This document shows, in pieces, positions 1 through 45,890 of a DNA stretch of 64,000 bases. Numbering within the stretch: the first letter of the stretch is position 1; each line of letters begins with the position of its first letter. The notes beneath the pieces were generated by a model, which did not search any database, was not told the DNA's origin, and saw nothing but the letters and a program-made list of their open reading frames with translations. The position numbers and the translations under genes were made by a program. The stretch covers positions 1 through 64,000 of IMG/VR virus record IMGVR_UViG_3300023179_000037; one strand, written 5' to 3'. Origin of the DNA: a virus.

Positions 1-19
1 TACGTTGGTTCATTTTTTC

Positions 20-48
20 TTGACCTATATATAAAAAGATGTTAAACT
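20..48 (+). promoter_or_regulatory. sigma70-type promoter upstream of dpdA
   Basis: TTGACC(20-25), 17-nt spacer, TAAACT(43-48). Confidence 0.5.
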
Positions 49-50
49 TA

Positions 51-113
51 GACTGGGACAGCAAGAACTTGACCTCTTGTTGGGAATTGCTCGAACAATT
101 CCCTAACCAGCCA
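51..113 (+). ncRNA. structured leader RNA (three-way junction) upstream of dpdA
   Basis: Hairpins CAGCAAGA/TCTTGTTG and GGGAATTG/CAATTCCC, closed by CTGG/CCAG; GC-rich in an AT-rich context. Confidence 0.45.
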
Positions 114-142
114 TTATTATTTATAAACAAACGGTTTTTGTA

Positions 143-1438
143 ATGCAAAAGAAACAAAAAATCTTCGAGTACACAATTTCTGGCCCGGCATATATTCGCC
201 TTGGTGCAGAACAATGCAATGATCCAGAGACTCTTGATATGATTAAAAATCTTATTTTAAAAACATGTCATAACCAAAACAACCATACCTTTTCTTTACT
301 ATATAATGGATTTACTGAAAAGAATTTTGGTGCCAAATTACAAAAGTATCGACCAGCTATTAAGCAAATTCATGCAGACTCAGGTGGGCTACAAATTATT
401 ACTAGAGGATTGCAAAATACTCCAGAAGTAAGAGATAAGGTTTATACTAATCAAGGAACATACGCAGATATAGGTATGGCATTTGATGAAATTCCTGTCA
501 AAGCAACTCAAGACGGTAGATCATCCAAAATTGATACGAAGCGTAGATTTTTCGATAAAGAAAATTTTGATACTTATGCAACACAAACAGGCAAGAATGT
601 TAGGGCACAGATTGAAAAGTTTGCAGAATTAAAATCCAACTGTAAACCTTTTGTAATTATACATGGCGCTTCCCATCAAACTTATCAACAATGGGCGGAA
701 ACGATTCTAAGAGAAGTTTCACAACCATTGCATCATAGAATAGGGGGCGTGGCGATGGGATCTGCTGCTCTGGGGATGGGGCAATTGGAAGATGTAAAAA
801 GAGCATACTATGTTACATTGATGCCTTTTTCTAAACCTTTTCATCTGCATATTTTGGGGGTAGGTGCACTTAGACGCATGCTTCCTTATTTACTTTTCAG
901 TCAAACGGGTTTGTATGATGGAATTGATATTTCTTATGATTCCACTACTCATTCTATGTCTCTTGATAATGGGTTATTCTACTTCTCACATTATAAGAAG
1001 TCACCAGGATCTGCCTATGGAGGCACTTCAGTGAAGATGGGAAGAGAATACTCTAACATCTATAGAACAGTTACAGAAGAAATCAATTCGGTATGCGAGA
1101 CAGAATACACACCCGAAGAATATCATAAATTAATGAACAAACAAGTTACTGCATATTTAGATGAAGGCGGCAAATTTATTGACATTATGCGAGCAAGACT
1201 GGCATTTATTTTAACTAATATTCATAATTTTACTAAAGACGTATCAGAGCTGACACAATCTAAAGAACAATTTCTAAAATTTGCAAGAAATAAAGATTGT
1301 GAAAATGAATATGCAGCACTATTTGATGTTAAAAATTTAGATGATTTTCTACATTGGGAAAAGCATATTGGAAGATATATGGACTCGGAATCGGTAGTTG
1401 ATAAACCACCTTCATCACTAGAGGATTTATTTACATGA
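143..1438 (+). CDS. dpdA: TGT-fold 7-deazaguanine DNA transglycosylase (DpdA-like)
   Basis: TGT motifs ADSGGLQ, FDEIP, HILGVG, SYDSTTH; clustered with QueD-family genes. Confidence 0.8.
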   Translation: MQKKQKIFEYTISGPAYIRLGAEQCNDPETLDMIKNLILKTCHNQNNHTFSLLYNGFTEKNFGAKLQKYRPAIKQIHADSGGLQIITRGLQNTPEVRDKVYTNQGTYADIGMAFDEIPVKATQDGRSSKIDTKRRFFDKENFDTYATQTGKNVRAQIEKFAELKSNCKPFVIIHGASHQTYQQWAETILREVSQPLHHRIGGVAMGSAALGMGQLEDVKRAYYVTLMPFSKPFHLHILGVGALRRMLPYLLFSQTGLYDGIDISYDSTTHSMSLDNGLFYFSHYKKSPGSAYGGTSVKMGREYSNIYRTVTEEINSVCETEYTPEEYHKLMNKQVTAYLDEGGKFIDIMRARLAFILTNIHNFTKDVSELTQSKEQFLKFARNKDCENEYAALFDVKNLDDFLHWEKHIGRYMDSESVVDKPPSSLEDLFT

Positions 1439-1815
1439 TTATCAAACAAGACATTAGACCTCGTACAGAAACATTTATTAAGATTCGTACAGAATTTGAA
1501 GGTTACCATAGATATCCTATTGCTAGCCAAATTGATTCTCGTATCGCATTTCTTGAAAATGAACATAGACATATGTTTAAAGTCGAGGTCAAGATTTCTG
1601 TATCACATCTTGATAGGGAATTGGAATTCTTTTTAGTTAAATGGGCATTACAAGATTTTATTAAAGGTGGTAATATGAATCACAAATCATGTGAGATGAT
1701 TGCTACAGATATTCTTGAACAACATCTTATTCCGAAATATGGCGAAAGATATTATGAAATTATTGTGTCCGAAGACGGCGAGTCTGATGGTATTGTTGAA
1801 TATTTTCCGGGTTAA
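1435..1815 (+). CDS. dpdL: QueD-like T-fold protein, probable CDG decarboxylase (DpdL-type)
   Basis: LENEHRHMF fits the LxxxHRHxF signature I recall for DpdL; SCEMIA and VSEDGE T-fold C-terminal motifs; overlaps the dpdA stop. Confidence 0.6.
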   Translation: MIIKQDIRPRTETFIKIRTEFEGYHRYPIASQIDSRIAFLENEHRHMFKVEVKISVSHLDRELEFFLVKWALQDFIKGGNMNHKSCEMIATDILEQHLIPKYGERYYEIIVSEDGESDGIVEYFPG

Positions 1816-1817
1816 TT

Positions 1818-2990
1818 ATGCGTAAATTGTGGTATTGCGGACTAGAGCCGTATGAGGGCAGATATACTTTACAGCTTCAGCAATGGAGCGAAGCTGTATT
1901 TAAGCGCAGGGGTATTGATTATGAGGTAATTCATGGTGAACTACTAGATACATCTAAATCTATTGTGACGGGTCAAGTACTTGATGCACATGGCCGTAGT
2001 TATTATTCTTTGACTCAAATGGCCAAACTTGTAGCAAAGATGAAGGCGGGTGAAGTAACTTGGGAAGATACTATTTTCTTTGAGGATATGTTTACCCCCG
2101 GTATGGAAGCTTTGCCTTATATTATGGATCAGACAACAACAGATTATAGACCTCAGGTGTGGGTAAGATGTTTAGCGCAGACAATAGATCCAGATGATTT
2201 TCTTCATGTATGGGATATGCAAGATTGGATGCGACATTATGAGCATATGATAAATCATTTTGTGACTGGTGTATTAGCATCTAATGAAGAAATGGTGGCA
2301 CATATGAAAATTGCCGGTTGGAATGTTCCAACCTACAATATTTCTGGTCTTGCATTTAGTAAAGAAGAAGTGCAATCTCGAGTGCCTTATAGAAAAAAGT
2401 TTTACGATAGACAGAGGCGAGTGTGTTTTGCTGCTAGATTTGACCAAGAAAAACAACCTGGATTTTATATGGACATGGTTGAAAAAATAAAACCATATCA
2501 TGACATTGAATTTTGTGTTTTGTCGGGCGGACCACTACGCAGTAATGATCCCAATTATTTGGAGAGAGCACGTGAATTAGAAAATAAAGGTATTCTAAAG
2601 ATATATGAAAATTTATCTAAAAATGAATACTATAATATTTTGGCAGATTCAAGAATTTTATTTAACTGCGCCCTACAGGATTGGGTTTCTAATACTGCTT
2701 CAGAAGCTGACGCCCTTGGAACAAATTGCTTATATCCTGCTTATCGATCTTTTCCCGAGACATTTGCCAATGATGAAGAATGTTTGTATGTGCCTTGGTC
2801 AACAAAGGATGCTGAAACTAAGCTATTGTGGTTAATGAATAATCCGAGAACTGGACTAGGCAGATTATCAAATTGGACAAATGAAACTATAGATCGTTGT
2901 TTAGATATCATGGAGGATGGTTTTGCTAGTGAAAAATGGTATAGGGGAAACAATAGGTATAGAAATTATGTCTCAGAATCTAAATACTAA
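1818..2990 (+). CDS. GT-B fold glycosyltransferase
   Basis: FAARFDQEKQP and ALQDWVSNTASEADALG (GT4-like donor-binding region), YPAYRSFPE. Confidence 0.75.
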   Translation: MRKLWYCGLEPYEGRYTLQLQQWSEAVFKRRGIDYEVIHGELLDTSKSIVTGQVLDAHGRSYYSLTQMAKLVAKMKAGEVTWEDTIFFEDMFTPGMEALPYIMDQTTTDYRPQVWVRCLAQTIDPDDFLHVWDMQDWMRHYEHMINHFVTGVLASNEEMVAHMKIAGWNVPTYNISGLAFSKEEVQSRVPYRKKFYDRQRRVCFAARFDQEKQPGFYMDMVEKIKPYHDIEFCVLSGGPLRSNDPNYLERARELENKGILKIYENLSKNEYYNILADSRILFNCALQDWVSNTASEADALGTNCLYPAYRSFPETFANDEECLYVPWSTKDAETKLLWLMNNPRTGLGRLSNWTNETIDRCLDIMEDGFASEKWYRGNNRYRNYVSESKY

Positions 2991-3984
2991 AAATATTCTA
3001 GTTACTGGTGCTGCTGGTTATATTGGTGGCATTACTTGTATCGAGTTAAAAAGAAGAGGATACAATGTCTTTGGAGTGGATAGAAGATTTTTTGATCATT
3101 TAAAAGATTACTATGATGATTTTTATCATGGAGATTTTACTGACAATGAATCTTTTTTACTTATAAAGAAAGTAAATCCTGTTGCAATAATTCATTGTGC
3201 AGGAACAAGTTTAGTTGCTCCTAGTTTTATCTCTCCGGGGGATTATTTTAATAATAACGTAGCTAAAACAAATAAATTATTAAACTTTATTAAAGATGAA
3301 ATTCCTTCTACTAAATTTATTTTTAGTAGCAGTGCTGCTGTGTATGGTAATTGGTCTACATATCCTTATCGAGAATATAGTGACACAATACCTGTGTCAC
3401 CTTACGGTGAATCTAAGCTAATGGCGGAAAAGATATTATCATGGTATCATCAAGTATATAATTTAAATTATGTATCCTTAAGATATTTTAATGCATGCGG
3501 TGCAGATTATGATGCTGCTCATGGGCAAGAACCTTATGCTACACATATATTTGCTAAATTATTTGAAGCAGCATTAAATGATACAGTATTTACATTAAAT
3601 GGCGCAACTTATCGAACTAATGATAATACTTGTGTACGAGATTATGTTCATGTTTCAGATATAGCGGATGCTCATATTAAAAGTATTGAAAATAAAATCA
3701 CAGGCATATATAATTTAGCTACCTTAAGAGGCACATCAAATCTCGAATGTTTAGATTATGTAGAAAAGCTTTTAGATAAGAAAATTGTGGTAAATGTAGC
3801 TCCAGCAAGAAAAGGCGACCCTGCTATTCTTGTAGCTGATCCAACTAAGTTCCAAGTAGTAACAGGATGGAGAGCATGGCGAACTATTCCATTAGTGGTA
3901 AGCCATTTACAGAAATGGTATGAATCTTCTATATTTAAAAACTATAGTAATAAGCGGTCTCAGGACGCTCATCCCGCTTTATAA
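2968..3984 (+). CDS. galE: UDP-glucose 4-epimerase (GalE-like SDR)
   Basis: VTGAAGYIG, SSSAAVYG, YGESK, LRYFNACGA, CVRDYVHV; ATG at 2968 preferred. Confidence 0.85.
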   Translation: MSQNLNTKNILVTGAAGYIGGITCIELKRRGYNVFGVDRRFFDHLKDYYDDFYHGDFTDNESFLLIKKVNPVAIIHCAGTSLVAPSFISPGDYFNNNVAKTNKLLNFIKDEIPSTKFIFSSSAAVYGNWSTYPYREYSDTIPVSPYGESKLMAEKILSWYHQVYNLNYVSLRYFNACGADYDAAHGQEPYATHIFAKLFEAALNDTVFTLNGATYRTNDNTCVRDYVHVSDIADAHIKSIENKITGIYNLATLRGTSNLECLDYVEKLLDKKIVVNVAPARKGDPAILVADPTKFQVVTGWRAWRTIPLVVSHLQKWYESSIFKNYSNKRSQDAHPAL

Positions 3985-3996
3985 ATTCTGCGTGTC
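3952..3996 (+). promoter_or_regulatory. preQ1-I-like riboswitch aptamer (H-type pseudoknot)
   Basis: P1 AAGCGG/CCGCTT, loop ending CATC, A-rich tail, loop CAG pairing with tail CTG; directly upstream of queD. Confidence 0.55.
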
Positions 3997-4022
3997 ATCA
4001 AACTTACTCAAGGAGGCAAGAG

Positions 4023-4094
4023 ATGGCTTATACGTATACAGTATATCATAATAAATTTGTTAGTACGACGGAACATCATGATGTTTTATGTTAA
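4023..4094 (+). CDS. 23-aa leader ORF upstream of queD (MAYTYTVYHNKFVSTTEHHDVLC)
   Basis: Strong SD AGGAGG; in frame with queD; its stop overlaps the queD SD. Confidence 0.45.
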   Translation: MAYTYTVYHNKFVSTTEHHDVLC

Positions 4095-4103
4095 GGATTA
4101 ATT

Positions 4104-4613
4104 ATGACATTCCAACCAATAGTATACAAATTTACAAGTACAAAAGAATATGTTGATGAATTTCCATGTGCCTACAAACAATGGAAAGCTGACACTCACT
4201 GTAACAGAAATCACGGTTATAGCTTTTCAATGAAGTTTTATTTTGGGGCTAACGAATTAGATAAGCGGGGCTGGGTTTGTGATTACGGCGGTCTTAAAGA
4301 ATTAAAGCAAATTCTTAAAGATCAATTTGACCACCGCACTTTAATTGCTCAGGATGATCCGGATCTTGAAAAGTTTAAACAACTTGAGCAGGACGGCATC
4401 TTACAACTTACCATACTACCGGGCATGGGCTGCGAAATGATTGCCGATATGCTTTACAAATATGTAAATGGAGTTTATATTCCGCAGTACCTCGGAGAAG
4501 GCGAAGCCAAACGAATTTGGTGCTACAGAGTTGAAGTCCGAGAAACCCAGTCTAATATGGCTTTTAGAGAAGGCCACCGAGAGTGGAACGAGGACTTATT
4601 TGTAGATTTTTAG
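4104..4613 (+). CDS. queD: 6-carboxy-5,6,7,8-tetrahydropterin synthase (QueD-like)
   Basis: HCNRNHGY (CxxxHGx), DYGGLK, FDH, GCEMIA, VRET motifs. Confidence 0.85.
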   Translation: MTFQPIVYKFTSTKEYVDEFPCAYKQWKADTHCNRNHGYSFSMKFYFGANELDKRGWVCDYGGLKELKQILKDQFDHRTLIAQDDPDLEKFKQLEQDGILQLTILPGMGCEMIADMLYKYVNGVYIPQYLGEGEAKRIWCYRVEVRETQSNMAFREGHREWNEDLFVDF

Positions 4614-4692
4614 TAAATCGACATAAATAAACACAAAACAATATGATTTTTAGAGAAAACCGCAGTCACCGGCATAAGGATTTATTCCAGTT

Positions 4693-5739
4693 ATGAAAAT
4701 TTGTTTACTCGGTGATACACATTTTGGAGTTAGATCCGATTCTAAAATTTTTCATAAATATTTTCTATATTTCTATGAAAAAATATTTTTTCCTTATCTA
4801 GAGGAAAATAACATCAATACAATTATTCAATTAGGCGATTTATTTGATAGAAGAAAGTATATAAATTTTCTTACACTATCTGAGTCTAAAAAATATTTCT
4901 TTGATATAATTAAAAATAAAAATATAAAAACAATTGCTTTATTGGGCAATCATGATATTTTCTGGAAGGAAAGTTTATCAGTAAATTCTCCTGATTTATT
5001 ACTTGAAAATTATGAGACATTGTCCATTATTAAATCTCCAAAAACTTTAGAATTAAATATACCCATAGATATTATACCCTGGATATGTAAAGAAAATGAG
5101 GAGGAAGTTTTAGATTTCATAAAAAATTCCAATTCAAAAATTTGTATGGGACATTTTGAACTATCTGGATTTGAAATGATGCGAGGAGTTCCTAATCATG
5201 ATGGTATAGACAGTAAATTTTTAAATAAGTATGAGCGTGTTTATAGTGGTCATTTTCATACAGCATCTTCTAAAGGAAATATCACATATTTGGGTACTCC
5301 TTATGAATTGACGTGGTCAGATTATAATGACCCTAAAGGATTTTATATTCTTGATACTGATACATTGAAACTAGAATTTATTAAAAATCCTATTACAATG
5401 TTTGAAAAAATATATTACGATGACATTAAAAACGATATAATAGATACAAACAAATACGAAGATAAATTTATTAAACTGATTGTAGTAAATAAAACTGATT
5501 TTAAAAAGTTTGATTCTTTTGTTGATAATCTTTATAAAATTAATCCGAACGAAATAAAAATATTAGAAGATCTTTCTGAATTCGAATCTTCAGATATGGA
5601 GGAAAATCTAAATTTAGAAGATACGATGACACTCTTATCCGATTACGTAGATGGTATTGAAACTGATGCGAATAAAGATAGAATAAAATTATTATTGAAA
5701 GAGCTATATGTAGAAGCTCACGATTACGAGGAAACATGA
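4693..5739 (+). CDS. 47: recombination nuclease subunit gp47 (Mre11/SbcD-like)
   Basis: GDTHFG, LGDLFD, GNHD, GHFH metallophosphoesterase motifs; followed by gp46. Confidence 0.92.
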   Translation: MKICLLGDTHFGVRSDSKIFHKYFLYFYEKIFFPYLEENNINTIIQLGDLFDRRKYINFLTLSESKKYFFDIIKNKNIKTIALLGNHDIFWKESLSVNSPDLLLENYETLSIIKSPKTLELNIPIDIIPWICKENEEEVLDFIKNSNSKICMGHFELSGFEMMRGVPNHDGIDSKFLNKYERVYSGHFHTASSKGNITYLGTPYELTWSDYNDPKGFYILDTDTLKLEFIKNPITMFEKIYYDDIKNDIIDTNKYEDKFIKLIVVNKTDFKKFDSFVDNLYKINPNEIKILEDLSEFESSDMEENLNLEDTMTLLSDYVDGIETDANKDRIKLLLKELYVEAHDYEET

Positions 5740-10275: not shown

Positions 10276-11439
10276 ATGAAATTGACAGAAATTGAAAAAC
10301 GAGATATTGTTGCCGATCTTGCTGAAAAATTTGGTGCATCAGCATCTAGAAAAATTATTATAAAGCACTTTAAAGATTCATCTCTCCCGGTTCCTAATTG
10401 GCTAATTAATGGTGACGAGTATCGTTTAGAACGAGGCATAATAAATTTATCCTTGCCCTTAGATCAAAATAAAATAATAATGAAAAAAGAAGAAACACAT
10501 ATGCCCGCATTACAAGCACAAGTAGTCCAAATTAAACAAAAGAAATTAGATCAACAAATAGATAATCTAGTTCCTATTAAAGATTATACTTATGTTCCTT
10601 TTGGATTTTTTAAAGATTTAGAAGAAATTATTAAGTCTGAATCATTTTATCCATTGTTTATTACTGGTTTATCTGGTAATGGTAAAACAACTATGGTTGA
10701 GCAAGTTTGTGCTAAGTTGAATAGAGAGTGTATTCGAGTAAATATTAGTATTGAAACGGATGAGGATGACCTTGTAGGTGGAAATACTTTAGTAGATGGA
10801 AATGTTGTCTTTAGAGAGGGTCCTGTAATTACTGCTATGCGTAGAGGAGCTATTCTACTTATTGATGAGATAGATAGAGGTAGCAATAAACTTATGTGTA
10901 TTCAAGGTATCTTGGAGGGCAAGCCTTTTTTTATTAAGAAAACCGGCGAAGTAGTACATCCAACTAATGGTTTTAATATCGTAGCAACTGCTAATACTAA
11001 AGGTAAAGGCACTGATGACGGTAAGTATATTGCTGCTCAAATTTTGGATGAAGCTTTTCTAGAACGTTTTCCAATCACTATTGAACAGGAATATCCTACT
11101 TTAGTAACCGAGAGAAAGATTATTCATAATAATATGAAACTGCTAGGGTGCACTGATGATGAGTTTGCGGATAAGTTGGTAGAATGGGCAGAAATTATTC
11201 GAAAAACTTATTTGGAAGGCGCAATTGATGAATTAATTTCTACACGACGTCTAGTACATATTGTTAAAGCATATTCAGTATTTAAAGATAAACTGAAAGC
11301 GATTAATCTGTGTATAAATCGCTTTGATTCTGATACTAAAAATGCTTTTATTGATTTGTATAATAAAATGGATTTGCCAAAACAACAGGAAACTGTACCA
11401 AGTCAGCCTTTATCTAACAATGATGAATTGCCTTTATAG
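10276..11439 (+). CDS. cobS: CobS/MoxR-like AAA+ ATPase
   Basis: GLSGNGKT, LLIDEID, ATANTKG, AFLERF, STRRL. Confidence 0.85.
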   Translation: MKLTEIEKRDIVADLAEKFGASASRKIIIKHFKDSSLPVPNWLINGDEYRLERGIINLSLPLDQNKIIMKKEETHMPALQAQVVQIKQKKLDQQIDNLVPIKDYTYVPFGFFKDLEEIIKSESFYPLFITGLSGNGKTTMVEQVCAKLNRECIRVNISIETDEDDLVGGNTLVDGNVVFREGPVITAMRRGAILLIDEIDRGSNKLMCIQGILEGKPFFIKKTGEVVHPTNGFNIVATANTKGKGTDDGKYIAAQILDEAFLERFPITIEQEYPTLVTERKIIHNNMKLLGCTDDEFADKLVEWAEIIRKTYLEGAIDELISTRRLVHIVKAYSVFKDKLKAINLCINRFDSDTKNAFIDLYNKMDLPKQQETVPSQPLSNNDELPL

Positions 11440-11446
11440 TGAGATT

Positions 11447-12208
11447 ATGTTTACATTAGATAATTTTCTAGTAATGGAATCTATGTATGGGAAGTTTATT
11501 CTTCCCAGGCATTGTACTCCGGGCCCACCTACACCTGATCCTGCATCTACTATGCTTCGCACAGGTAAGACACATATTGAGGACGAACTAAGCAATATTT
11601 TATATCTTGTTAGTAAATTGCCTGAGAATTCTATTATTGTGGATGGGGGAGCAAATATGGGATTTTTCTCTATTCCAGTAGCTCAGGCAGTTAAAGAAAG
11701 GGGCAGTAAAGTAATTGCGTTTGAACCACAGAAACAATTATTTTATGCTTTAGGTGGCACTATTGCATTAAATGAATTAGATAATGTTTTTTTACACAAT
11801 TTGGGTATAGGTGACAAACAAACTGTTGCTCAGCTTTCTGAGGTAAGTTATAGCCAAGTTTCAGATTATGGTATGGTATCTATTTCTGAAATTTTAAGTA
11901 TTAATGAAATACCATATCTAAGATATAATACATGTGAAGTTATTACTATTGATTCTATGAATCTTCCGCGCCTAGATTTTTTAAAGTTGGATATTGAGGG
12001 ATTTGAATGCCAAGCTTTAAGGGGTTCTCTAAATACTATAACTAAATTCAAACCTTGGATTTGGATCGAATACAATATGGCCGGTGAGCAAAATATTAAA
12101 AAAGAACTTGAAAATATTAAAGAGTATCGATATCAAATTATTGATTGGCAAAATATGTTGATTGGAACTAAAGAGCAATTTTCTTCTATTGGGTTTAGAC
12201 ATGGATAA
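11447..12208 (+). CDS. FkbM-family methyltransferase
   Basis: VDGGANMG, AFEPQ, LKLDIEGFE; ATG at 11447 preferred. Confidence 0.85.
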   Translation: MFTLDNFLVMESMYGKFILPRHCTPGPPTPDPASTMLRTGKTHIEDELSNILYLVSKLPENSIIVDGGANMGFFSIPVAQAVKERGSKVIAFEPQKQLFYALGGTIALNELDNVFLHNLGIGDKQTVAQLSEVSYSQVSDYGMVSISEILSINEIPYLRYNTCEVITIDSMNLPRLDFLKLDIEGFECQALRGSLNTITKFKPWIWIEYNMAGEQNIKKELENIKEYRYQIIDWQNMLIGTKEQFSSIGFRHG

Positions 12209-12986
12209 ACTATTACTGCATACTCATACCGGCCTTGGGGATCATATTATTACGAACGGAATGGCACATGCCTTTGCTGAAAGATATGATAAGGTATTAG
12301 TTATTCATATCAAACAATTAGGAGAATCAGTTAGAGCTCTCTATGCTGGTCATAACAAAATTCAAACTATTGAATTTCCCGATATTGATGTTACTCGTAA
12401 TGGTATGGATATGGTTAGAAAAACTGCAGAAATCGAAAATGCAGAATTAATTAGTATAGCTGATCCATATTTAGTGTATCCAAGACGTTATCTTTTAGAC
12501 AAAGACAATAATCTAACAGTGCAGCATGTCGCCACAAATTTCGATAGACAATTTTATGAATTAGCTGGAATGCATTTTTCTATTAGATATACTAAGAGTA
12601 GAATTCCAAACAGCACAAAAAGATCAAGAGAAATTCTTGGTGATTTATCAAAAGGGCAACCTTTCAGGCTAGTCCATAATACCAGTAGTCAAAATAATTC
12701 TGGATATCCTTTAGAATTTCAAAAGTTTACTAAATTTCATGATTTACCATTTATTGAAATTCTTCCAGGTATTACCAATAACGTATTTGACTTTGTGGAC
12801 TTAATTAAACATGCTTCAGAAATACACACGGTGGGTAGTTTCTTTCATCATATTGTGGATAGTATGATTCCTCAAACAAATGCAGAATTATTCTTTCATA
12901 ATATTATGATGAAACATGATACACAAATTAATTGCTTTTGGAATAATAATCGTTGGTCTATAGTAGAATACGACAGAAAATACTAA
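12201..12986 (+). CDS. putative glycosyltransferase (GLGD N-terminal motif)
   Basis: HTGLGDHIITNG...ASEIH; paralog of 20982..21686. Confidence 0.55.
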   Translation: MDKLLLHTHTGLGDHIITNGMAHAFAERYDKVLVIHIKQLGESVRALYAGHNKIQTIEFPDIDVTRNGMDMVRKTAEIENAELISIADPYLVYPRRYLLDKDNNLTVQHVATNFDRQFYELAGMHFSIRYTKSRIPNSTKRSREILGDLSKGQPFRLVHNTSSQNNSGYPLEFQKFTKFHDLPFIEILPGITNNVFDFVDLIKHASEIHTVGSFFHHIVDSMIPQTNAELFFHNIMMKHDTQINCFWNNNRWSIVEYDRKY

Positions 12987-13010
12987 TAAATAATTATTTT
13001 AATATGTTAT

Positions 13011-13883
13011 ATGAAAAAGTTAAAACTTGGATTTACTGATACTCATGATCACCTAGCTTCATTCTTTTATTCCCTATTATCCACTAGATATGAAATAGAA
13101 ATAGATAATAGTGACCCAGAATATTTAATTTTTGGTGATAATAATTTTGGCAATAATAATTTACGGTTCTCTAAAGATAAGTGTATAAAGATTTTTTATA
13201 CAGGTGAAAATCAGAGGCCCGAGGATTATGATTGCCATTATGCCATTTCTTTTGATCACATTTATGAACCATGGCATTATAGACTTCCTTTATTTGTAAT
13301 TTATATGTGGGCATGGAAGCATATTCACAATATGAAATATGATATGGATTTCATTCTTAGAGATAATGACATTCTAAAGAAAACATCTTTTGCTTCTTTT
13401 GTTGTATCTAATCCAAATTGTAGTGAAAGAAATAAATTCTTTAAGTCATTAAATGAATATAAGACAATTGACAGTGGAGGAAAACTATTCAATAATATAA
13501 ATGCTAATATAGATGGAGAGCAGGGCAAAATAGATTTTTTGTCTACTAGAAAATTTAATATCGCATTTGAACCTTTTTCATATCCTGGTTATACTACCGA
13601 AAAAATAATGCACGCATTTTATGCTGGGACAATCCCAATTTATTGGGGAAATGAATTAGCTAACTCAGACTTCAATAGAGATGCATTTATCAATGTACAT
13701 GATTTTTCATCATTTGACGATGCAATTAATTATATTATGAGGGTTGATAATGATGATTCACTTTATAATAAAATAGTAAAATCTCCCAAGTTTATCAATA
13801 ACATTCCTCCATCTTATCTTATTTTAGATAATTTTCTAAATTGGTTTGATGCAGTGGTATATAATAAGATACTACAACGATGA
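13011..13883 (+). CDS. alpha-1,3-fucosyltransferase-like protein (GT10)
   Basis: FYTGEN, SFVVSN, KFNIAFE...GYTTEKI...IPIYWG. Confidence 0.85.
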   Translation: MKKLKLGFTDTHDHLASFFYSLLSTRYEIEIDNSDPEYLIFGDNNFGNNNLRFSKDKCIKIFYTGENQRPEDYDCHYAISFDHIYEPWHYRLPLFVIYMWAWKHIHNMKYDMDFILRDNDILKKTSFASFVVSNPNCSERNKFFKSLNEYKTIDSGGKLFNNINANIDGEQGKIDFLSTRKFNIAFEPFSYPGYTTEKIMHAFYAGTIPIYWGNELANSDFNRDAFINVHDFSSFDDAINYIMRVDNDDSLYNKIVKSPKFINNIPPSYLILDNFLNWFDAVVYNKILQR

Positions 13884-14593
13884 AAATACATACATTTATC
13901 TTTAATTGGCGTAACCAATACAATAAAACACTTGAAAAAATTGAACAATTCAGAGAAATAGGAATCCACCCTACCGTTATTAATAGTGATGAAGCATTCT
14001 ATTTAGACAATTGGCACAACTTAGGGGATGATGCATATTTTACTGCGCAAATGCTTAAGGCATTGGAAGTTTTTGATGGGGAAGTTTTATTTCATATACA
14101 AGCGGATGCTAGTTATAATAGATGGGCAGAATTAATAGCAGATGCTAAAAAATATTATGATCTTTACAAATGGGGTATCTATGCCCCTAACGTAGATTAC
14201 ACTTGGTATGATTCATCTAGAACAGATTTGGATTGTTTTACTGTAGATGAAACACCATTAAAAATGGTGGCAAATACTGATTGTACATGTTGGTTTATTC
14301 ATAAAGATGTAATTAATAAAGCGACTGAGCGCGATATAAATTTCGCACCGTATAAAATGGGTTGGAGTTTTGATATAGTTTATCCTGCATTATCATATCT
14401 TATGAAACGTCCTGTATTGAGAGATTATTCTCACACTATTAAGCATCCAAGAGGAACTAATTACGATACACAACAAGCAGAAAAAGAAATGGCGGATCTT
14501 TATAACTCATTACCTGTAGATATACAAGAAGCTTTTTACTATATTAAGGGTGATAGAATGCAGTTGTCTAAATACTATATGGATCAACAATGA
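13880..14593 (+). CDS. putative glycosyltransferase (GT-A-like)
   Basis: HIQAD motif, GIYAP, GW; lies inside the glycan cluster. Confidence 0.45.
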   Translation: MKIHTFIFNWRNQYNKTLEKIEQFREIGIHPTVINSDEAFYLDNWHNLGDDAYFTAQMLKALEVFDGEVLFHIQADASYNRWAELIADAKKYYDLYKWGIYAPNVDYTWYDSSRTDLDCFTVDETPLKMVANTDCTCWFIHKDVINKATERDINFAPYKMGWSFDIVYPALSYLMKRPVLRDYSHTIKHPRGTNYDTQQAEKEMADLYNSLPVDIQEAFYYIKGDRMQLSKYYMDQQ

Positions 14594-15498
14594 TAATAGA
14601 TTTTCATCAAACTAATAGTTTTTTAAAACAAAAATTATTAGATAATGAATCATTTTATGCTTTAAGAATTGACAATACTGCAGGGTATGTTATTGAATGT
14701 CTCTTAAAAGGTGAAAACCCTGACCCAGGATTTTATACTGAAAAATCTATAATCGAGGCAGGTGTTGTGCCAACAACCAAAGAATATACATTAAATAGTT
14801 TGTATCCAATGACTATTGAATGTATGAAAAGATCTGATTTACTTGGTTTTGTTGATGTAGCAAATACACTTCATACTAAGAAAGATTTTTTAAATCATTT
14901 TTCCGGAAGACCTATATTTGCTGGATTACCAATGTTGGTTATGGATCCGGCGGCATTAGTAAATATTTCTGGTTATTATGAATGCACCGATCCTTGGACA
15001 AAATATTTAAAGGGAAAGAAGGTTTTAGTTGTATCTACTCACGCCGAATCTATTTTATATCAATGGGATAATATGAATAAAGTATGGGGCGATAAAAAAG
15101 ATTTAATTGTTCCTTTTGATTTAGTCGACGTAATTAGAAGCCCTTATCATCCTAGCATGGATAATAGACAGTATCCAAATTGTAAAAATTGGGAAGAAAC
15201 TGTAGAATACATTAAACACAAAATGGAGTCTTATGATTTTGATGTGCTGTTAGCAGGATCGACAACATCTGCTCCTTTCTATGCAGAACATGCTAAGAAT
15301 ATCGGCAAAGTGGGCATTCAAACTGGTGGCACAATACAACTCTTTTTTGGTATACTTGGTTATCGTTGGACACAGGTAGAGGGATATAAAAATTGGCATA
15401 AGATGTATAATGAACATTGGATAAATCCACTGCCTATTGATGAAGCCAAATTTCGTAAAGATAATCTTAGATTAGAAACTAATTTTGCATACTGGTAA
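14590..15498 (+). CDS. putative GT-D-fold-like glycosyltransferase
   Basis: GKKVLVVS...FDVLLAG...GKVGIQTGG pattern; cluster context. Confidence 0.45.
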   Translation: MIIDFHQTNSFLKQKLLDNESFYALRIDNTAGYVIECLLKGENPDPGFYTEKSIIEAGVVPTTKEYTLNSLYPMTIECMKRSDLLGFVDVANTLHTKKDFLNHFSGRPIFAGLPMLVMDPAALVNISGYYECTDPWTKYLKGKKVLVVSTHAESILYQWDNMNKVWGDKKDLIVPFDLVDVIRSPYHPSMDNRQYPNCKNWEETVEYIKHKMESYDFDVLLAGSTTSAPFYAEHAKNIGKVGIQTGGTIQLFFGILGYRWTQVEGYKNWHKMYNEHWINPLPIDEAKFRKDNLRLETNFAYW

Positions 15499-15499
15499 A

Positions 15500-16819
15500 A
15501 TGAAACAAGAAATAATTGATAATGTATCAAAGTTTTTCGTTGAAAAAGCTAAAAATAAAAAATGGACGGCAGGCAAAGACTTTGTAAATTATGCAGGACC
15601 ATACTTTGATGAGAGAGAATATGCTTCTGTCATGGATACATTACTTGATGGTTGGTTAGTAATGGGAGAGAAATGCCTAAAGTTTGAAAAAGAATTCCCA
15701 AAGTATTTTGGTAAATCACATGGCATAGTGACCAATTCAGGTTCAAGTTCTAATCTTCTTATGATGTCATCGTTGACATCTAAAAGAGGTTATAATCTAT
15801 CTAAAGGAACTAAAGTATTAGTGCCTGTAGCTGGATTTCCTACTACTTTTAATCCCATTTTGCAGGTAGGATTTGAGCCAATATTTTTAGATATTGAAAT
15901 TGATACATTAAATTTAGATTTAACCAAAGCAGAAGATTTAATTAAAAAATATAATATTAGAGTAATAACGTTTGCACACGTTTTAGGTAATCCCCCAAAC
16001 ATGCGTTGGATAATGGAATTAGTTAACAAATATGATTTATTATTTTTAGAAGATTGTTGTGATGCGTTGGGAACAACTTATGATGGAAAAGAGCTTGGCT
16101 CATTTGGCATAATGTCCACCTGTAGTTTTTATCCTGCTCATCATATAACTATGGGTGAGGGTGGTTATGTTGCTTGTAATACATATGAACAAGAAGTTAT
16201 TCTCAGATCATTTAGAGAATGGGGTAGAGGTTGTTACTGTGTAGGACCCGAGGCGAATAAATTACAATGCGGTACTTGTGGTAAAAGGTTTAGTGAATGG
16301 ATTCCGTGTTTAAAAGAACAGATTTTCGATCACAAATATGTATATGATGAGATAGGATATAATCTTAAACCCATTGAAGTTCAGGGGGCGATGGGTGTAG
16401 TTCAACTACAGAAATTAAATGAAATTCATTCATTACGAAAAAGAAACTACAAATTAATGTTTGAAATTTATAGTAAATATGAAGAATATTTTCATTTGCC
16501 TAGAGCACAAGAATATAGTGATCCCAGTTGGTTTGCATTTCCATTAACTATTAGAAAAGGTTCCCCTTTTAATAGAAATGATATAGTAGATTATCTTGAA
16601 ACAAATTTGATTCAGACAAGGCCGTATTTTGCTGGTAACTTATTACTACAACCTGCTTATTCTCATTTAATGAATTCTGAAGATGCTAAAAGAGAATTTC
16701 CCATAGCCACATTTGTGATGCAAAATACTTTCTTCCATGGCACTAGTCCGGTTATTACGAAAGAGCAAATTAATTACATTGGGTATACTGTAGATAATTT
16801 CATGAGTTTATTTAAATGA
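15500..16819 (+). CDS. rfbH: NDP-4-keto-6-deoxyglucose 3-dehydrase (RfbH/DdhC, PMP-dependent)
   Basis: NSGSSSNLL, EDCCDALG, SFYPAHHITMGEGG (His replaces the Schiff-base Lys), Cys-rich WGRGCYC...CGTC. Confidence 0.85.
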   Translation: MKQEIIDNVSKFFVEKAKNKKWTAGKDFVNYAGPYFDEREYASVMDTLLDGWLVMGEKCLKFEKEFPKYFGKSHGIVTNSGSSSNLLMMSSLTSKRGYNLSKGTKVLVPVAGFPTTFNPILQVGFEPIFLDIEIDTLNLDLTKAEDLIKKYNIRVITFAHVLGNPPNMRWIMELVNKYDLLFLEDCCDALGTTYDGKELGSFGIMSTCSFYPAHHITMGEGGYVACNTYEQEVILRSFREWGRGCYCVGPEANKLQCGTCGKRFSEWIPCLKEQIFDHKYVYDEIGYNLKPIEVQGAMGVVQLQKLNEIHSLRKRNYKLMFEIYSKYEEYFHLPRAQEYSDPSWFAFPLTIRKGSPFNRNDIVDYLETNLIQTRPYFAGNLLLQPAYSHLMNSEDAKREFPIATFVMQNTFFHGTSPVITKEQINYIGYTVDNFMSLFK

Positions 16820-17862
16820 GAGTATGTGATTACATAGCAGAATTTTTATATAACTACGGTGTCAGACGTGTTTATGGTTTGATGGGTGGGGGCGCATCTG
16901 GTCTTAATGATGGTTTTATAAAAAATGGTTTGATAGAATATGTTTGTTTTCATCATGAACAGGGTGCCGGATATGCTGGATATGCTGAAGCTAAATCTAC
17001 AAATAAACTAGCAGTTGTTAATCCGACAACAGGATGTGGTGGTACAAATTGTATGACGCCATTACTTAATAGTTGGCAGGATTCAATTCCTGTATTATTT
17101 TTATCTGGTAATGTTAGATTAACACATACTTCTAATTACATCAATAAAACTAAAAAGGTTAATATTCGAAAGTATGGTGTTCAAGAACACGATATAACTA
17201 ATACGGTAAAAAATATAACTAAGTATACAACAGTTATAGAAAATCCTGACGATGTACAATACGAATTACAAAAATCTATATACATCGCAACAAGCGGAAG
17301 ACCAGGGCCCGTGTGGATAGATATACCCAGTGATGTACAAACAGCAACAATGCCTAAAAATTCTAGAATCTTTTTATCTGATTCTAATAAAAATAAAAAA
17401 ACAATAGCATATAAATCATTTGAAGAAGTACTTCTTCAATCTAGTAAACCTATTGTATTGGCGGGCAACGGTATTCATCTAAGTAATACTAGAGATATAT
17501 TTAAAGATTTTATTGAATATCACAACATTCCTTTTGTGTCTACCTATTTAGGTAGGGATTTAATAGAATATGATCACGAATTGAATTTGGGAGCAATCGG
17601 CATAAAGGGAACTAGAGCAGCTAACTTTGCTTTGTATTATGGTGATTTATTACTAATATTGGGTTGCTCCTTAAATGCTACACATATGGGGTATGATGAA
17701 AAGCAATTTTCGCCTTTTTCATATAAAATAATGGTAGACATTGATAAAAATGAAACATTAAAATCTATTATTAATATAGATAAAATTTTTAATTTAGATT
17801 TAAGGATTTTCTTTGATGAATATCAATACAGAAAGACAAAAAAATTGGGCAACTCTTTGTAA
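16816..17862 (+). CDS. TPP-dependent enzyme, N-terminal and central domains (acetolactate synthase/YerE-like)
   Basis: HHEQGAG, TTGCGGTN, SGRPGPVWIDIP. Confidence 0.85.
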   Translation: MRVCDYIAEFLYNYGVRRVYGLMGGGASGLNDGFIKNGLIEYVCFHHEQGAGYAGYAEAKSTNKLAVVNPTTGCGGTNCMTPLLNSWQDSIPVLFLSGNVRLTHTSNYINKTKKVNIRKYGVQEHDITNTVKNITKYTTVIENPDDVQYELQKSIYIATSGRPGPVWIDIPSDVQTATMPKNSRIFLSDSNKNKKTIAYKSFEEVLLQSSKPIVLAGNGIHLSNTRDIFKDFIEYHNIPFVSTYLGRDLIEYDHELNLGAIGIKGTRAANFALYYGDLLLILGCSLNATHMGYDEKQFSPFSYKIMVDIDKNETLKSIINIDKIFNLDLRIFFDEYQYRKTKKLGNSL

Positions 17863-18589
17863 AACTTGGAAAGATAAGTGGCCTGTTTATACTAATGATT
17901 ATAATGATACTGATCGAGCAATAAACATTTATACATTTATAGAAGTTTTGAACGATGTAATGAATGAAAATCATATAGTAATAACAGATGCCGGATCGCC
18001 TTCATATGCTTTACCTCAAAATTTAAAATGTAAATCTAATCAACGTTTTATTTTCTCAGCAGCACAAGCGGATATGGGATTTTCTATTCCAGGATCTGTA
18101 GGAGTAGCCAAAGCTAATCCAAATAAGCATATTATTGTTGTAACGGGTGATGGTAGTTTTAATTCAAATCTACAAGAGCTGGCAGTTATAAAATATCATA
18201 GATTGCCAATAAGTATTTTTGTTTTGGATAATAATGGATACTTAAGTATTAAAAATACACAAAAGAAGTTTTTTGAAAATCGAGTATATGGTGTAAATCC
18301 TAGTACAGGTATAATGTTCGCAGATTTAGTTAAATCTGCTAAATTATTTAATTTAGATTACTATGTTTTAGATAGAATTTCCGATATGCAGAAAATTATT
18401 ATGGAAATACTTGATTCATCTAAACCTAAAATTGTACAGGTTATTTCTCAAGAAGAACAGGATATTATACCAACTCAAATGTTTAAAACGGTTAATGGTA
18501 GTAGAGTACAACCCGGATTAGACGATATGTATCCATTTATAGAAGAACAAGATTATATTGAAGAGAGGAAAAAAGCTTTAAATATATGA
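17816..18589 (+). CDS. TPP-dependent enzyme, C-terminal TPP-binding domain
   Basis: MGFSIPG, GDGSF...NNGY TPP motif. Confidence 0.85.
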   Translation: MNINTERQKNWATLCKTWKDKWPVYTNDYNDTDRAINIYTFIEVLNDVMNENHIVITDAGSPSYALPQNLKCKSNQRFIFSAAQADMGFSIPGSVGVAKANPNKHIIVVTGDGSFNSNLQELAVIKYHRLPISIFVLDNNGYLSIKNTQKKFFENRVYGVNPSTGIMFADLVKSAKLFNLDYYVLDRISDMQKIIMEILDSSKPKIVQVISQEEQDIIPTQMFKTVNGSRVQPGLDDMYPFIEEQDYIEERKKALNI

Positions 18590-19401
18590 AAATACTTGTA
18601 TTAGGTGCTAACGGCTTTATTGGTAATCACTTATGTCAATATTTAGTATCTAAAAAACATCATGTAATAATGTTTAATAAACACGTCGATGTTTTAAAAG
18701 ATAATAAATTGTATGATTATATAAAGGATATATCCCCTCATGTATTAATTAATTGTATTACTTTTGGAGGCAAAAAAGAAATATTATCAAATGATTTACA
18801 TTTTGCTATAGATAATTTAATATTGTTTTCTAATATTTTTAAGGCATCCAAATACTTTAAAAAATTTATAAATATAGGGTCCGGCGCAGAATTTTTAGAA
18901 GATAAGAATACGAATCTTGATTTTATCTCAGAAGTATCTATATGGGAAAAATATCCCAATTTTGGAGCATACGCTTCATCCAAAAATATTATAGCTAGAT
19001 TATGTGATATTACTGATAATTACTACACTTTAAGATTATTTGGTTGTTTTGGTCAAAATGAACCCGCATTTAGAATATTTACAGCATATAAGAACTCATT
19101 ATTAAATAATACTGTTTTTCAGTTATCTGATAAGTATTTTGATAATTTTTTTATAGAAGACTTTTGTAAAGTAATTGAATACTTTATAAATTACAATCCT
19201 GCGATCAAAGATATAAATTGTGTTTATACGGAGAAATTTAAACTAAGTCAACAGTTAGAACTACTTTCTTTTGTAAACAATTGGCCAATAAATTTTAAAA
19301 TAAAAGAGACAGGTACAAATTATACAGGATGTTCTAAAAATTTAGAAAGTCTAAATTTAAATTTGGTAGGGTTGACATCGGGATTAAAAACATACAAATG
19401 A
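18586..19401 (+). CDS. NAD-dependent epimerase/reductase (extended SDR)
   Basis: GANGFIG, GSGAEF, YASSK. Confidence 0.8.
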   Translation: MKILVLGANGFIGNHLCQYLVSKKHHVIMFNKHVDVLKDNKLYDYIKDISPHVLINCITFGGKKEILSNDLHFAIDNLILFSNIFKASKYFKKFINIGSGAEFLEDKNTNLDFISEVSIWEKYPNFGAYASSKNIIARLCDITDNYYTLRLFGCFGQNEPAFRIFTAYKNSLLNNTVFQLSDKYFDNFFIEDFCKVIEYFINYNPAIKDINCVYTEKFKLSQQLELLSFVNNWPINFKIKETGTNYTGCSKNLESLNLNLVGLTSGLKTYK

Positions 19402-20351
19402 GAAAAATAGTTTATGTAACAGGGTGTTTAGGTTTTATAGGTTACCATGTAACCAAAGCGTGTTTAGATAGGGGTTGGTATGTATATGGAATAGATAAAT
19501 GTACATATGCTGCTAATTGTAATTTATTAGACGATTTGCAGAGTTATGGTGAACATTTTAAATTTGACGTAATAGATATAAATGATATTTCAAGATTATA
19601 TGACTGTGATTATGTAATTAATACTGCTGCTGAAACACATGTAGACAACAGTATTGAGAGCTCGGATGTTTTTCTTAAAAGTAATGTTAATGGTGTTCAC
19701 AAATTACTTGAATTGATAAAATGTAAACCTAAATCAAGAAGACCTATTTTGTTACATTTTAGTACAGATGAAGTTTATGGGGATATTGAAATAGGCTCTC
19801 ATTCTGAGGAAGATCTTTTATTACCAAGCAATCCCTATAGTGCCACAAAAGCAGCTGCTGATATGCTTATCTTAGCATGGGCAAGAACATATAGTATTCC
19901 CTATATTATAGTTAGGCCTACTAATAATTATGGTATTGGTCAATATGTGGAAAAATTTATTCCGAAAGCAATTAAAAATTTAAGCCTTGGTAAAAAAATT
20001 GTAATGCACAATGAAGGATTACCTAAAAGAACATGGCTTCATGTATCCGATACTGCCAATGCAGTTATTACAATAATAGAAAAGAATGTAGTAAATGAAA
20101 TTTATAATATTTCTGGCAATGTAGAAAAACAAAATATAGATGTAGCTCAACAATTACTTGGTTTATTTTATAGTAATACTTCATATACATTTAATGATAA
20201 TTTTGATTTTTCGGAAGTAAGACCTGGTCAAGATGTACGTTATTCAATTAACGATAAAAAATTAAAAGATTTAGGTTGGGAGCCAAAAGCTATCTTTGAA
20301 AATGAATTGATTCAGATAATGAATTGGTATAGAAAGAATTTTATATGGTAA
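19398..20351 (+). CDS. rmlB: dTDP/NDP-glucose 4,6-dehydratase
   Basis: TGCLGFIG, AAETHVD, STDEVYG, PYSATK, RPGQDVRY. Confidence 0.88.
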   Translation: MRKIVYVTGCLGFIGYHVTKACLDRGWYVYGIDKCTYAANCNLLDDLQSYGEHFKFDVIDINDISRLYDCDYVINTAAETHVDNSIESSDVFLKSNVNGVHKLLELIKCKPKSRRPILLHFSTDEVYGDIEIGSHSEEDLLLPSNPYSATKAAADMLILAWARTYSIPYIIVRPTNNYGIGQYVEKFIPKAIKNLSLGKKIVMHNEGLPKRTWLHVSDTANAVITIIEKNVVNEIYNISGNVEKQNIDVAQQLLGLFYSNTSYTFNDNFDFSEVRPGQDVRYSINDKKLKDLGWEPKAIFENELIQIMNWYRKNFIW

Positions 20352-20989
20352 AATATTTTACGTTTAGTATTTGGGGAGATAATCCTAAATACACTTTCGG
20401 TGCTATTAGAAATGCTCAATTAGCACAAAAAATATTTCCAGATTGGAAGTGCTTATTTTACCATGACAATACTGTTCCTAATGCGGTCCTAAATATTCTA
20501 AGAAATTTCGACAACAGTGAAGTAATTGAAATCACAGATAATTCATTTGGAGCATTCTGGAGATTTGATATAATGTTTGACGGCGGGGACGTCGTATTAT
20601 CAAGAGATACTGATTCTAGATTAAGTGAGAGAGAAAAAGTTTTAATTGACCATTGGCTTGAAACTAATGCTAATTACATGGTAATTAGAGATCATCATAA
20701 TCATTATGAATTCCCAATACTTGCTGGTATGTGGGGGAAAAAATGTATTGCTCTTAATAGAAATTTTAAAGTTATTATGGAGCAATATAGATACACTAAA
20801 ACTTATACTGTAGATCAAGTATTTCTTAGAGACGTTGTATGGCCTTTGATTCAATATGAGACTCAAGTTTACGGTGTTAAAGAAGTAGAATGGATGAGGG
20901 ATAATTATGATTTTACTGGTCGTCATTTTATAGGACAAACATATACTGAAAATGACGAACCAGTATACGAGGGAAAAATAGATGAATGA
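20345..20989 (+). CDS. putative GT-A glycosyltransferase
   Basis: FSIWGDNPKY...WRF...SRDTDSR...DQVFL. Confidence 0.55.
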   Translation: MVKYFTFSIWGDNPKYTFGAIRNAQLAQKIFPDWKCLFYHDNTVPNAVLNILRNFDNSEVIEITDNSFGAFWRFDIMFDGGDVVLSRDTDSRLSEREKVLIDHWLETNANYMVIRDHHNHYEFPILAGMWGKKCIALNRNFKVIMEQYRYTKTYTVDQVFLRDVVWPLIQYETQVYGVKEVEWMRDNYDFTGRHFIGQTYTENDEPVYEGKIDE

Positions 20990-31051: not shown

Positions 31052-31125
31052 TGCGGGTTGGTGAAAAGGTATCACAGAGGACTCATAATCCTCAGTCTCT
31101 AGTTCGAATCTAGAACCCGCTACCA
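31052..31125 (+). tRNA. tRNA with CAT anticodon (Met or Ile2)
   Basis: GCGGGT/ACCCGC acceptor, GAGGA-CTCATAA-TCCTC, TTCGAAT T-loop, encoded CCA. Confidence 0.9.
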
Positions 31126-32061: not shown

Positions 32062-32085
32062 TTACATCTTTCCAAGAAATTTTTA

Positions 32086-33116: not shown

Positions 33117-33124
33117 TTTAACCC

Positions 33125-33220: not shown

Positions 33221-33221
33221 G

Positions 33222-37562: not shown

Positions 37563-37585
37563 TATAGAGTCTATGGAGATTCTTG

Positions 37586-45876: not shown

Positions 45877-45890
45877 ATAGGTTTCTTTGT

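Follow-up and report, generated by a model that had tools for sequence, protein, structure and literature searches.

The DNA of Cellulophaga phage phiST carries the 7-deazaguanine nucleoside dDG. The phage encodes a set of FolE, QueD, QueE, DpdL, and DpdA3, in which the conversion of 7-carboxy-7-deazaguanine (CDG) to 7-deazaguanine by DpdL has been proposed (PMC10516641). When dpdA and dpdL of the Acidovorax phage ACP17 were expressed in E. coli, no dDG was produced, and the authors suspected that enzymes were missing (PMC10516641). Here we describe a five-gene operon of an uncultured phage, located in the first 64 kb (hereafter the window) of the linear viral contig IMGVR_UViG_3300023179_000037 (111,975 bp). 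In this operon a glycosyltransferase (GT), named GT1, and a GalE-family epimerase stand between DpdA- and DpdL-type genes and queD. The system is a variant on the known phage 7-deazaguanine systems. We lean slightly towards the reading that the virion DNA of this phage carries a 7-deazaguanine decorated with a hexose.

The operon and its closest counterparts

Five co-oriented open reading frames (ORFs) occupy positions 143-4613, all at the coordinates given in a preliminary description of this DNA. The operon features are:

143-1438, + strand: ORF1, DpdA-like DNA-guanine transglycosylase, 431 aa (tRNA-guanine transglycosylase (TGT) fold, phrog_10773, invariant HADSGGLQ)
1412-1435, + strand: C-terminal tail SSLEDLFT of DpdA, a putative sliding-clamp docking peptide (tail form as in gp43)
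1435-1815, + strand: ORF2, DpdL, 126 aa (LENEHRHMF signature, phrog_17812)
1818-2990, + strand: ORF3, GT1, a GT4-like GT-B glycosyltransferase, 390 aa (predicted fold, co-occurrence with DpdL)
2968-3984, + strand: ORF4, GalE-family UDP-hexose 4-epimerase (a start at 2917 is possible, 2968 is likelier; TIGR01179, PDB sequences, motifs)
4104-4613, + strand: ORF5, phage-type QueD (putative 6-carboxytetrahydropterin (CPH4) synthase), 169 aa (Pfam PTPS, phrog_2389, CxxxHGY)

ORF1 and ORF2 overlap by 4 nt (ATGA), ORF2 and ORF3 are separated by a 2-nt gap, ORF3 and ORF4 overlap by 23 nt (74 nt with the start at 2917, both candidate GalE starts overlapping the GT1 stop), and a 119-nt spacer lies between ORF4 and ORF5. 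Terminator-like sites were absent from positions 1-5000, against 2.5 expected, and a scan for sigma-70 promoters gave a result no better than chance. This operon structure is directly established. The tight coupling of a GT-B glycosyltransferase and GalE between the DpdA/DpdL-like genes and queD, as first described, was confirmed in coordinates, overlaps, and gene identities.

The locus is similar to that of phiST in having the same DpdL signature (LxxxHRHxF), a CxxxHGY-type QueD, a TGT-fold transglycosylase, no QueC, and adjoining replication genes; by tblastn, ORF2 is 31% identical to the phiST DpdL (CGPG_00067, 2e-8). However, phiST has no GT1 in its whole genome, no GalE, and no second GT. 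Its DpdA3 (CGPG_00065) has 259 aa and no detectable profile similarity to ORF1 (hhalign probability 0.5%, in a weak comparison of a profile with a single sequence), whereas ORF1 is of the ACP17 type, with 431 aa and a polymerase-like tail.

ACP17 carries a dpdA-GT-dpdL-queE cluster. ORF1 is 34% identical to its DpdA (2e-61) and ORF2 40% identical to its DpdL (tblastn, 7e-14), and the 342-aa protein between dpdA and dpdL belongs to the GT1 family (profile 1e-41; template-modelling (TM) score of 0.73-0.82 in BFVD). The ACP17 cluster differs in its gene order and in lacking GalE and a second GT. No report on the DNA base of ACP17 was found in the accessible literature. The failure of its dpdA and dpdL in E. 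coli agrees with a glycosylated end product, because a GT1 gene lies between those two genes. In PA5oct, the DNA resists cleavage at G-containing restriction sites, and the published modified G was not assigned to a base. This also fits a glycosylated deazaguanine, as the PA5oct group carries GT1.

The other pathway enzymes of the operon were assigned from their signatures, which are directly observed. ORF2 reads LENEHRHMF, where QueD has CxxxHGH, and the pattern LxxxHRHxF was defined as the DpdL signature by Cui, Hutinet et al., NAR 2023 (PMC10516641). All 19 DpdL representatives (<50% identity) carry LxxxH[RF]HxF, and ORF2 belongs to phrog_17812 (2e-20). DpdL is a QueD paralog without the catalytic Cys and is proposed to be a CDG decarboxylase. 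ORF5 matched Pfam PTPS with 68 bits (cut-off 22) and phrog_2389 (3e-36), and scored 40.8 against the QueD model TIGR03367, under its cut-off of 89. Its signature CNRNHGY is of the form CxxxHGY, the same variant of the standard CxxxHGH that occurs in the QueD proteins of phiST and ACP17. ORF4 scored 251.1 bits against TIGR01179, just under the equivalog cut-off of 262.3. Its matches in the PDB with E values of 1e-20 or lower are 35 sequences, nearly all of them UDP-Glc/Gal 4-epimerases (best 7e-52), and it contains the NAD-binding motif GAAGYIGG (GxxGxxG) and the catalytic YGESK (YxxxK).

Only 142 bases precede dpdA on the contig, whose first base falls within a minus-strand ORF, and the genes further upstream were examined in two relatives, L004 and L007. 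Positions 4700-4880 of L004 align with window positions 1-160 at a mean column identity of 93% (gap columns included), about five aligned bases being different, and its DpdA, DpdL, and GT1 proteins are 87-96% identical to those of the window. The order upstream in L004 is a 202-aa ORF (probably gp55), queE, folE, a second GT (GT2, 450 aa), a 333-aa minus-strand endonuclease-like gene, and dpdA, and L007 has the same order without the endonuclease. In L007, a 281-aa protein is 49% identical to a BUCT-ZZ01 protein annotated as QueE, and a 457-aa protein with weak matches to the GT4 N- and C-domains shares 40% identity with the protein at the corresponding position in BUCT-ZZ01. Searches for queC were negative for the contig, for the complete BUCT-ZZ01 genome, and for two relatives of 222 and 190 kb with a completeness rating of 100%. 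The gene set of a DpdL-type pathway is therefore present: the window supplies QueD and DpdA, the upstream regions of L004 and L007 show QueE and FolE, and no QueC was found. Without QueC, the pathway would halt at CDG and pass to DpdL, as in phiST. The earlier suggestion that folE, queE, and queC may lie upstream thus holds for folE and queE, as judged from near-identical relatives, and fails for queC. The preliminary description did not mention the second GT of the relatives or the polymerase-like tail of DpdA.

The minus-strand ORF at the contig start has a counterpart in L004, where the gene at 3876-4877 (333 aa) matched DUF7487 (3.6e-12) and contains a NUMOD3 motif. In the lineage of the window phage and L004, an inserted homing-endonuclease-like gene separates dpdA from the second GT; L007 lacks this insertion. 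In the window it is represented by:

2-214, - strand: 5' part of a homing-endonuclease-like ORF (from the ORF list; truncated by the contig start)

On this basis, a pathway can be proposed, in which each catalytic step is our inference, as are the identity of the sugar, the atom that accepts it, and the sequence of the reactions. FolE and QueE, encoded upstream in the near-identical relatives, together with QueD would convert GTP to CDG, and DpdL would convert CDG to 7-deazaguanine without QueC, as proposed for phiST. DpdA would then exchange guanine in the phage DNA for 7-deazaguanine, probably while tethered to replicating DNA by its polymerase-like clamp-docking tail. GT1 would add a hexose to the deazaguanine, with the UDP-hexose supplied through the GalE-like epimerase; the base would receive the sugar either when already part of the DNA or while still free. 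The product would be a sugar-bearing purine that shields the DNA from host nucleases.

Linkage of GT1 to DpdL across viruses

Freshwater and marine viromes contain thousands of GT1 homologs. These accounted for 7982 of 8000 scored metagenome candidates and fell into 795 clusters at 50% identity. With GT1 and three distant homologs (about 30% identity) as seeds, 173 IMG/VR loci were gathered, and all of their ORFs were searched with purpose-built profiles. The following counts refer to the 110 non-redundant loci in which GT1 is flanked on each side by 3 kb or more:

DpdL: 110/110 loci
FolE: 92/110 loci
GalE-like short-chain dehydrogenase/reductase (SDR): 83/110 loci (55 directly adjacent)
QueE: 79/110 loci
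485-532-aa DSGGFQ protein: 77/110 loci
ORF1-type DpdA: 21/110 loci
Second GT: 21/110 loci

DpdL was found in only 29 of 50,697 cultured-phage records, yet it was present at every GT1 locus, so the association of GT1 with DpdL is far beyond chance. This strict linkage is a direct observation. Six cultured lineages also carry both genes (BUCT-ZZ01, ACP17, BUDD/X1, BCSR5, Phosso, and the PA5oct group), with GT1 within about 3 kb of DpdL, mostly adjacent to it, and in varying gene orders. The GT1 of the Synechococcus phage BUCT-ZZ01 is 65% identical to that of the window. The preliminary description had regarded a GT family that does not co-occur with dpd genes as fatal to its proposal; the 110 loci and the six cultured lineages show the opposite.

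In searches with three positive controls, GT1 was not found in the whole genomes of the DpdL phages phiST, Bakedbeans, MA9V-3, Ahp1, RHph_I1_18, D479, and Roos. Among prokaryote genomes, GT1 relatives occurred only on seven contigs of metagenome-assembled genomes, apart from one marginal match in a Faecalibacillus isolate (E 8e-4, 64 residues). GT1 is a phage-specific add-on to the DpdL pathway, since seven DpdL lineages including phiST do without it, and DpdL can work in its absence. IMG/VR scans seeded with the GT-less DpdLs of phiST and Ahp1 returned no loci, so the share of DpdL phages with GT1 is known for cultured phages only (six with and seven without).

A TGT-like protein of either type was present in 98 of the 110 loci. 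The 485-532-aa DSGGFQ protein is a lead for a second DpdA type, judged by sequence: in the ESM Atlas it was linked to TGT-domain clusters with a score of 0.94, PF01702 being assigned to 17% of their members, and hhalign of the ORF1 profile against the 532-aa protein was uninformative. Where the ORF1-type DpdA is missing (as in L045, 4134-6953, and L053, 4260-7336), three proteins accompany GT1 and DpdL, in 72-77 of the 110 loci. These are a protein of about 245 aa (phrog_12062), the DSGGFQ protein of 485-532 aa, and one of about 173 aa.

GT1 and GalE could also be ordinary glycan genes, acting on a host surface polysaccharide or a virion protein and standing beside the dpd genes by chance. The phage does have a large sugar island at about 11.3-25.7 kb, separate from the operon as had been described before, including a GT10 fucosyltransferase, a DegT aminotransferase, dehydratases, and methyltransferases, and many GT1 homologs are labelled 'glycosyltransferase involved in cell wall biosynthesis' by the Joint Genome Institute. 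However, DpdL is present in all 110 GT1 loci, and the pairing outlasts the shuffling of gene order in six cultured lineages that share no glycan island. The GT1 family is essentially missing from isolate bacterial genomes apart from the one marginal match, and the genes of the operon overlap. We therefore regard an unrelated glycan role as very improbable.

The link to GalE drawn in the preliminary description was upheld in that a GalE-like gene is frequent (83/110 loci), but it is not universal, and none is annotated in the 7-12 kb flanks of the cultured GT1 phages. Some clusters also hold phosphomannomutase, UDP-glucose dehydrogenase, cytidylyltransferase, and purine phosphoribosyltransferase genes. 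The last of these, of the xanthine-guanine type, lies within several deazaguanine-GT clusters (L001, 3733-4194; L053, 10853-11377), which suggests that the modified base may be handled at the level of nucleotides.

Fold of GT1, its likely acceptor, and the tail of DpdA

GT1 matched Pfam Glycos_transf_1 with 24.4 bits (E 2.4e-5), below the cut-off of 26.4, and many of its homologs have a precomputed PF00534 match. The AlphaFold2 (AF2) model of GT1 (pLDDT 94) has a GT-B fold of two Rossmann domains. Compared with GT4 structures, it gave Z scores of 25-28 over 320-348 residues aligned to sucrose-phosphate synthase, BshA, and MshA; other neighbors were SenB, LmbT, and the BGluT pterin glucosyltransferases (Z 24-25). 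The GT-B fold of GT1 is thus directly established. R207 and K212 do not vary in an alignment of 64 homologs (28-60% identity), in which D288-x7-E296 is conserved in at least 90% and E211 is conserved as well. By their spacing and by comparison with MshA, R207/K212 and D288-x7-E296 are candidates for the donor Arg/Lys pair and the EX7E-like motif of GT4 enzymes. The conservation of these residues would fit an active donor site in GT1.

The analogy with T-even DNA glucosyltransferases, drawn in the preliminary description, proved weak, since the nearest structures are GT4 enzymes and the T4 alpha- and beta-GT were not among the top 50 PDB matches of GT1. T-even alpha/beta-GT and the phage GTs that act on 5-hydroxymethylcytosine (5hmC) or 5-hydroxycytosine are likewise GT-B enzymes and decorate phage DNA after replication against nucleases, but their acceptor is a pyrimidine hydroxyl. 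One may nevertheless ask if GT1 glycosylates another base, such as a hydroxymethyl-pyrimidine, independently of the deazaguanine. The GT-B fold is common to the DNA glucosyltransferases, and a cyanophage 'DNA alpha-GT' model appeared at rank 29 (TM 0.5) in a viral fold search with GT1. However, no gene of the thymidylate-synthase or dCMP-hydroxymethylase families was found in the 112-kb contig (66% complete), T4 alpha/beta-GT stayed outside the top 50, and the linkage of GT1 is specific to DpdL. A pyrimidine acceptor is therefore extremely improbable.

A pterin acceptor was also considered. The cluster, or its GT1, GalE, QueD, and FolE part, might make a pterin glycoside comparable to the tetrahydrobiopterin glucoside of cyanobacteria, with DNA not being the target. 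FolE and a PTPS-family protein perform the initial steps of biopterin synthesis, the BGluT enzymes are among the structural matches of GT1 (Z 24-25), and the host of the nearest cultured relative is Synechococcus elongatus PCC 7942. However, BGluT ties with dozens of other GT4 enzymes, and QueE (49% identical to that of BUCT-ZZ01) and a TGT-fold enzyme are in the same operon. The SDR is GalE-like and not a sepiapterin reductase, and GT1 tracks DpdL also in phages of Pseudomonas, Burkholderia, Acidovorax, and Sinorhizobium. We consider a pterin product quite improbable.

For a deazaguanine acceptor, two kinds of precedent can be compared. In the glycosylated queuosine of animal tRNA (mannosyl-Q and galactosyl-Q), a sugar is attached to a 7-deazaguanine base in nucleic acid, and the mannosyl-Q transferase is a GT-B enzyme. 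They differ from the proposed product in that the nucleic acid is RNA and the sugar is carried by a hydroxyl group of the cyclopentenediol, a side chain beyond the reach of this pathway. The bond in the phage would be N- or C-glycosidic, as 7-deazaguanine has no hydroxyl. HuiG of the huimycin system, which has a family-4 N-terminal domain (PF13439), glycosylates a free preQ0-derived 7-deazapurine (bioRxiv 10.64898/2026.04.15.718813), indicating that sugar transfer to a base without a hydroxyl is feasible. The 7-deazapurine N-glycosides huimycin and dapiramicin differ from the phage system in being actinomycete secondary metabolites with a preQ0 core and QueC, and no DpdA, DpdL, or DNA is involved.

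ORF1 was identified by its fold. It had no Pfam match, TGT PF01702 included, even at E 10, and no NCBIfam match, and searches of PDB sequences, with the single protein and then with a profile, gave no match. This is as expected, because the divergent phage DpdA subfamilies were detected only with HHpred by Cui et al. (PMC10516641). The AF2 model from a 42-sequence alignment (pLDDT 91) had tRNA-guanine transglycosylases as all of its top 50 Foldseek matches, and VIA-align superimposed it on TGT with Z 22 and a root-mean-square deviation of 3.6 A over about 305 residues. Homologs in phrog_10773 include Stenotrophomonas and Xanthomonas phage proteins annotated as queuine tRNA-ribosyltransferase and the ACP17 protein. 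Among the 42 ORF1 homologs, HADSGGLQ (D79-S80-G81-G82) and YDSTTH (Y265-D266-S267-T268) are invariant. The former has the form DSGG(F/L)Q, the motif in which TGT enzymes have their substrate-binding Asp, and D266 of the latter is a candidate nucleophile by sequence alignment. ORF1 is a DpdA-like transglycosylase with a TGT fold, for which exchange of G in DNA for a 7-deazaguanine is predicted.

The C-terminus of ORF1 suggests where this exchange would take place. In T4, C-terminal peptides of the form found here dock proteins on the gp45 clamp. When the 292 window ORFs of at least 50 aa were scanned for the pattern L[ED]x[LFM][FY]x0-2 at the C-terminus, only two carried it. One is DpdA, which ends in SSLEDLFT, and the other is the C-terminal piece of gp43, which ends in ATLEGLFA. 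The tail was kept in 27 of 29 DpdA homologs and 21 of 23 GT2 homologs. Among GT1 homologs only 3 of 152 had it, and all homologs of DpdL, GalE, QueE, and FolE lacked it (0/96 to 0/145 per family). By analogy, the DpdA tail is a putative sliding-clamp docking peptide. That DpdA shares its tail form with the phage DNA polymerase points to an action on DNA, and the tail supports a post-replicative action by DpdA and, in the relatives, by GT2. The related features elsewhere in the window are:

26059-26715, + strand: gp45 sliding clamp, to which the tails of DpdA and the polymerase are presumed to bind (Pfam gp45-slide_C, 6e-9)
39560-40342, + strand: C-terminal piece of gp43, a split family-B DNA polymerase, ending in ATLEGLFA (PF00136 match at 38603-39010, ORFs, translation)

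Several points weigh against a hexose-decorated 7-deazaguanine in the DNA. GT1 itself is acidic (isoelectric point 5.4) and has no clamp tail, and its nearest structures are mostly small-molecule enzymes, one being a pterin glucosyltransferase. Since the base has no hydroxyl, an N- or C-linkage would be needed, and such linkages are uncommon among GT4-type enzymes. Glycosylated deazaguanine is a prediction, and a literature search found no description of such a base in DNA. The activity of DpdL has never been demonstrated in vitro, phiST included (PMC10516641). The contig is 66% complete according to CheckV and lacks the upstream genes, and many of the 110 loci come from related T4-like phages and hence are not independent.

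The acceptors of the nearest GT1 structures suggest that GT1 may work on a free base, and this raises a further explanation, in which the virion DNA holds plain 7-deazaguanine, or the CDG nucleoside dCDG, as in phiST, and GT1 acts on a free small molecule, such as a transient intermediate or carrier or a surplus base to be detoxified. In addition to the closest structures (BshA, MshA, SenB, LmbT, and sucrose-phosphate synthase) and the acidic, tailless GT1, it would account for the purine phosphoribosyltransferase genes of some clusters, which indicate that free-base chemistry is present, and for phiST making dDG without GT1. However, GT1 has stayed strictly linked to DpdL over a long time in phages of very different kinds, as if it contributed to the end product, the second GT of the relatives bears a polymerase-like tail, and sugar-nucleotide supply genes are co-encoded. 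We judge this explanation unlikely, while leaving it an appreciable probability.

For the preferred reading, a hexosylated deazaguanine in DNA, a more specific form can be given for the window phage and its many relatives, among them the cultured phages BUCT-ZZ01, ACP17, PA5oct, BCSR5, BUDD/X1, and Phosso. Their virion DNA would contain an N- or C-linked hexosyl-7-deazaguanine, the first sugar-bearing purine in DNA, made by a GT4-type enzyme that has co-evolved with DpdL and installed in a clamp-tethered manner at the replication fork. We hold this full form to be about evenly balanced between right and wrong. To our knowledge, and in the literature searched, the sugar-decorated DNA bases are pyrimidines only, namely glucosyl- and arabinosyl-5hmC, base J, and glycosylated 5-hydroxycytosine. 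Thus, a glycosylated 7-deazaguanine would, if true, be a new chemical class of DNA modification, and GT1 would have a new enzyme activity, namely glycosyl transfer to a base that has no hydroxyl. It might also be the reason why DpdA and DpdL alone yielded nothing in E. coli. The modification would be common, because thousands of GT1 homologs exist in freshwater and marine viromes, and it could affect how these abundant environmental phages fare under restriction and CRISPR targeting and how their DNA behaves in sequencing chemistry.

Other features of the window

The phage is a T4-like myovirus of low GC content (about 30-35%), and a DNA-level search of a cultured-phage collection found no close relative. 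T4-like markers in the window are the gp47/gp46 nuclease subunits, peptide deformylase, CobT/CobS-like proteins, the gp45 clamp, and the split family-B polymerase. The gp43 polymerase is divided into two ORFs, at 37583-39046 (487 aa) and 39374/39560-40342, separated by a gap of about 330-500 bases that is full of stops in the frame read. Rfam at the gathering threshold detected no intron in this gap.

The sugar island at 11324-25749 contains genes for an FkbM methyltransferase, a GT10 fucosyltransferase, a DegT aminotransferase, two SDR dehydratase/epimerases, a further methyltransferase, an APH-like kinase, a HAD phosphatase, and several ORFs without a family. A TPP enzyme in the island is divided into two ORFs (16816-18589). 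The Rfam scan of the window returned three tRNAs and nothing else; these genes, at 31053-31121 and 45794-45965, are two tRNA-Met (CAT) and one tRNA-Leu (TAA). A block of minus-strand ORFs at 31223-37426 (203, 115, 228, 873, and 527 aa) has a higher GC content (0.36-0.41) and reversed skew, in a genome that is otherwise on the + strand.

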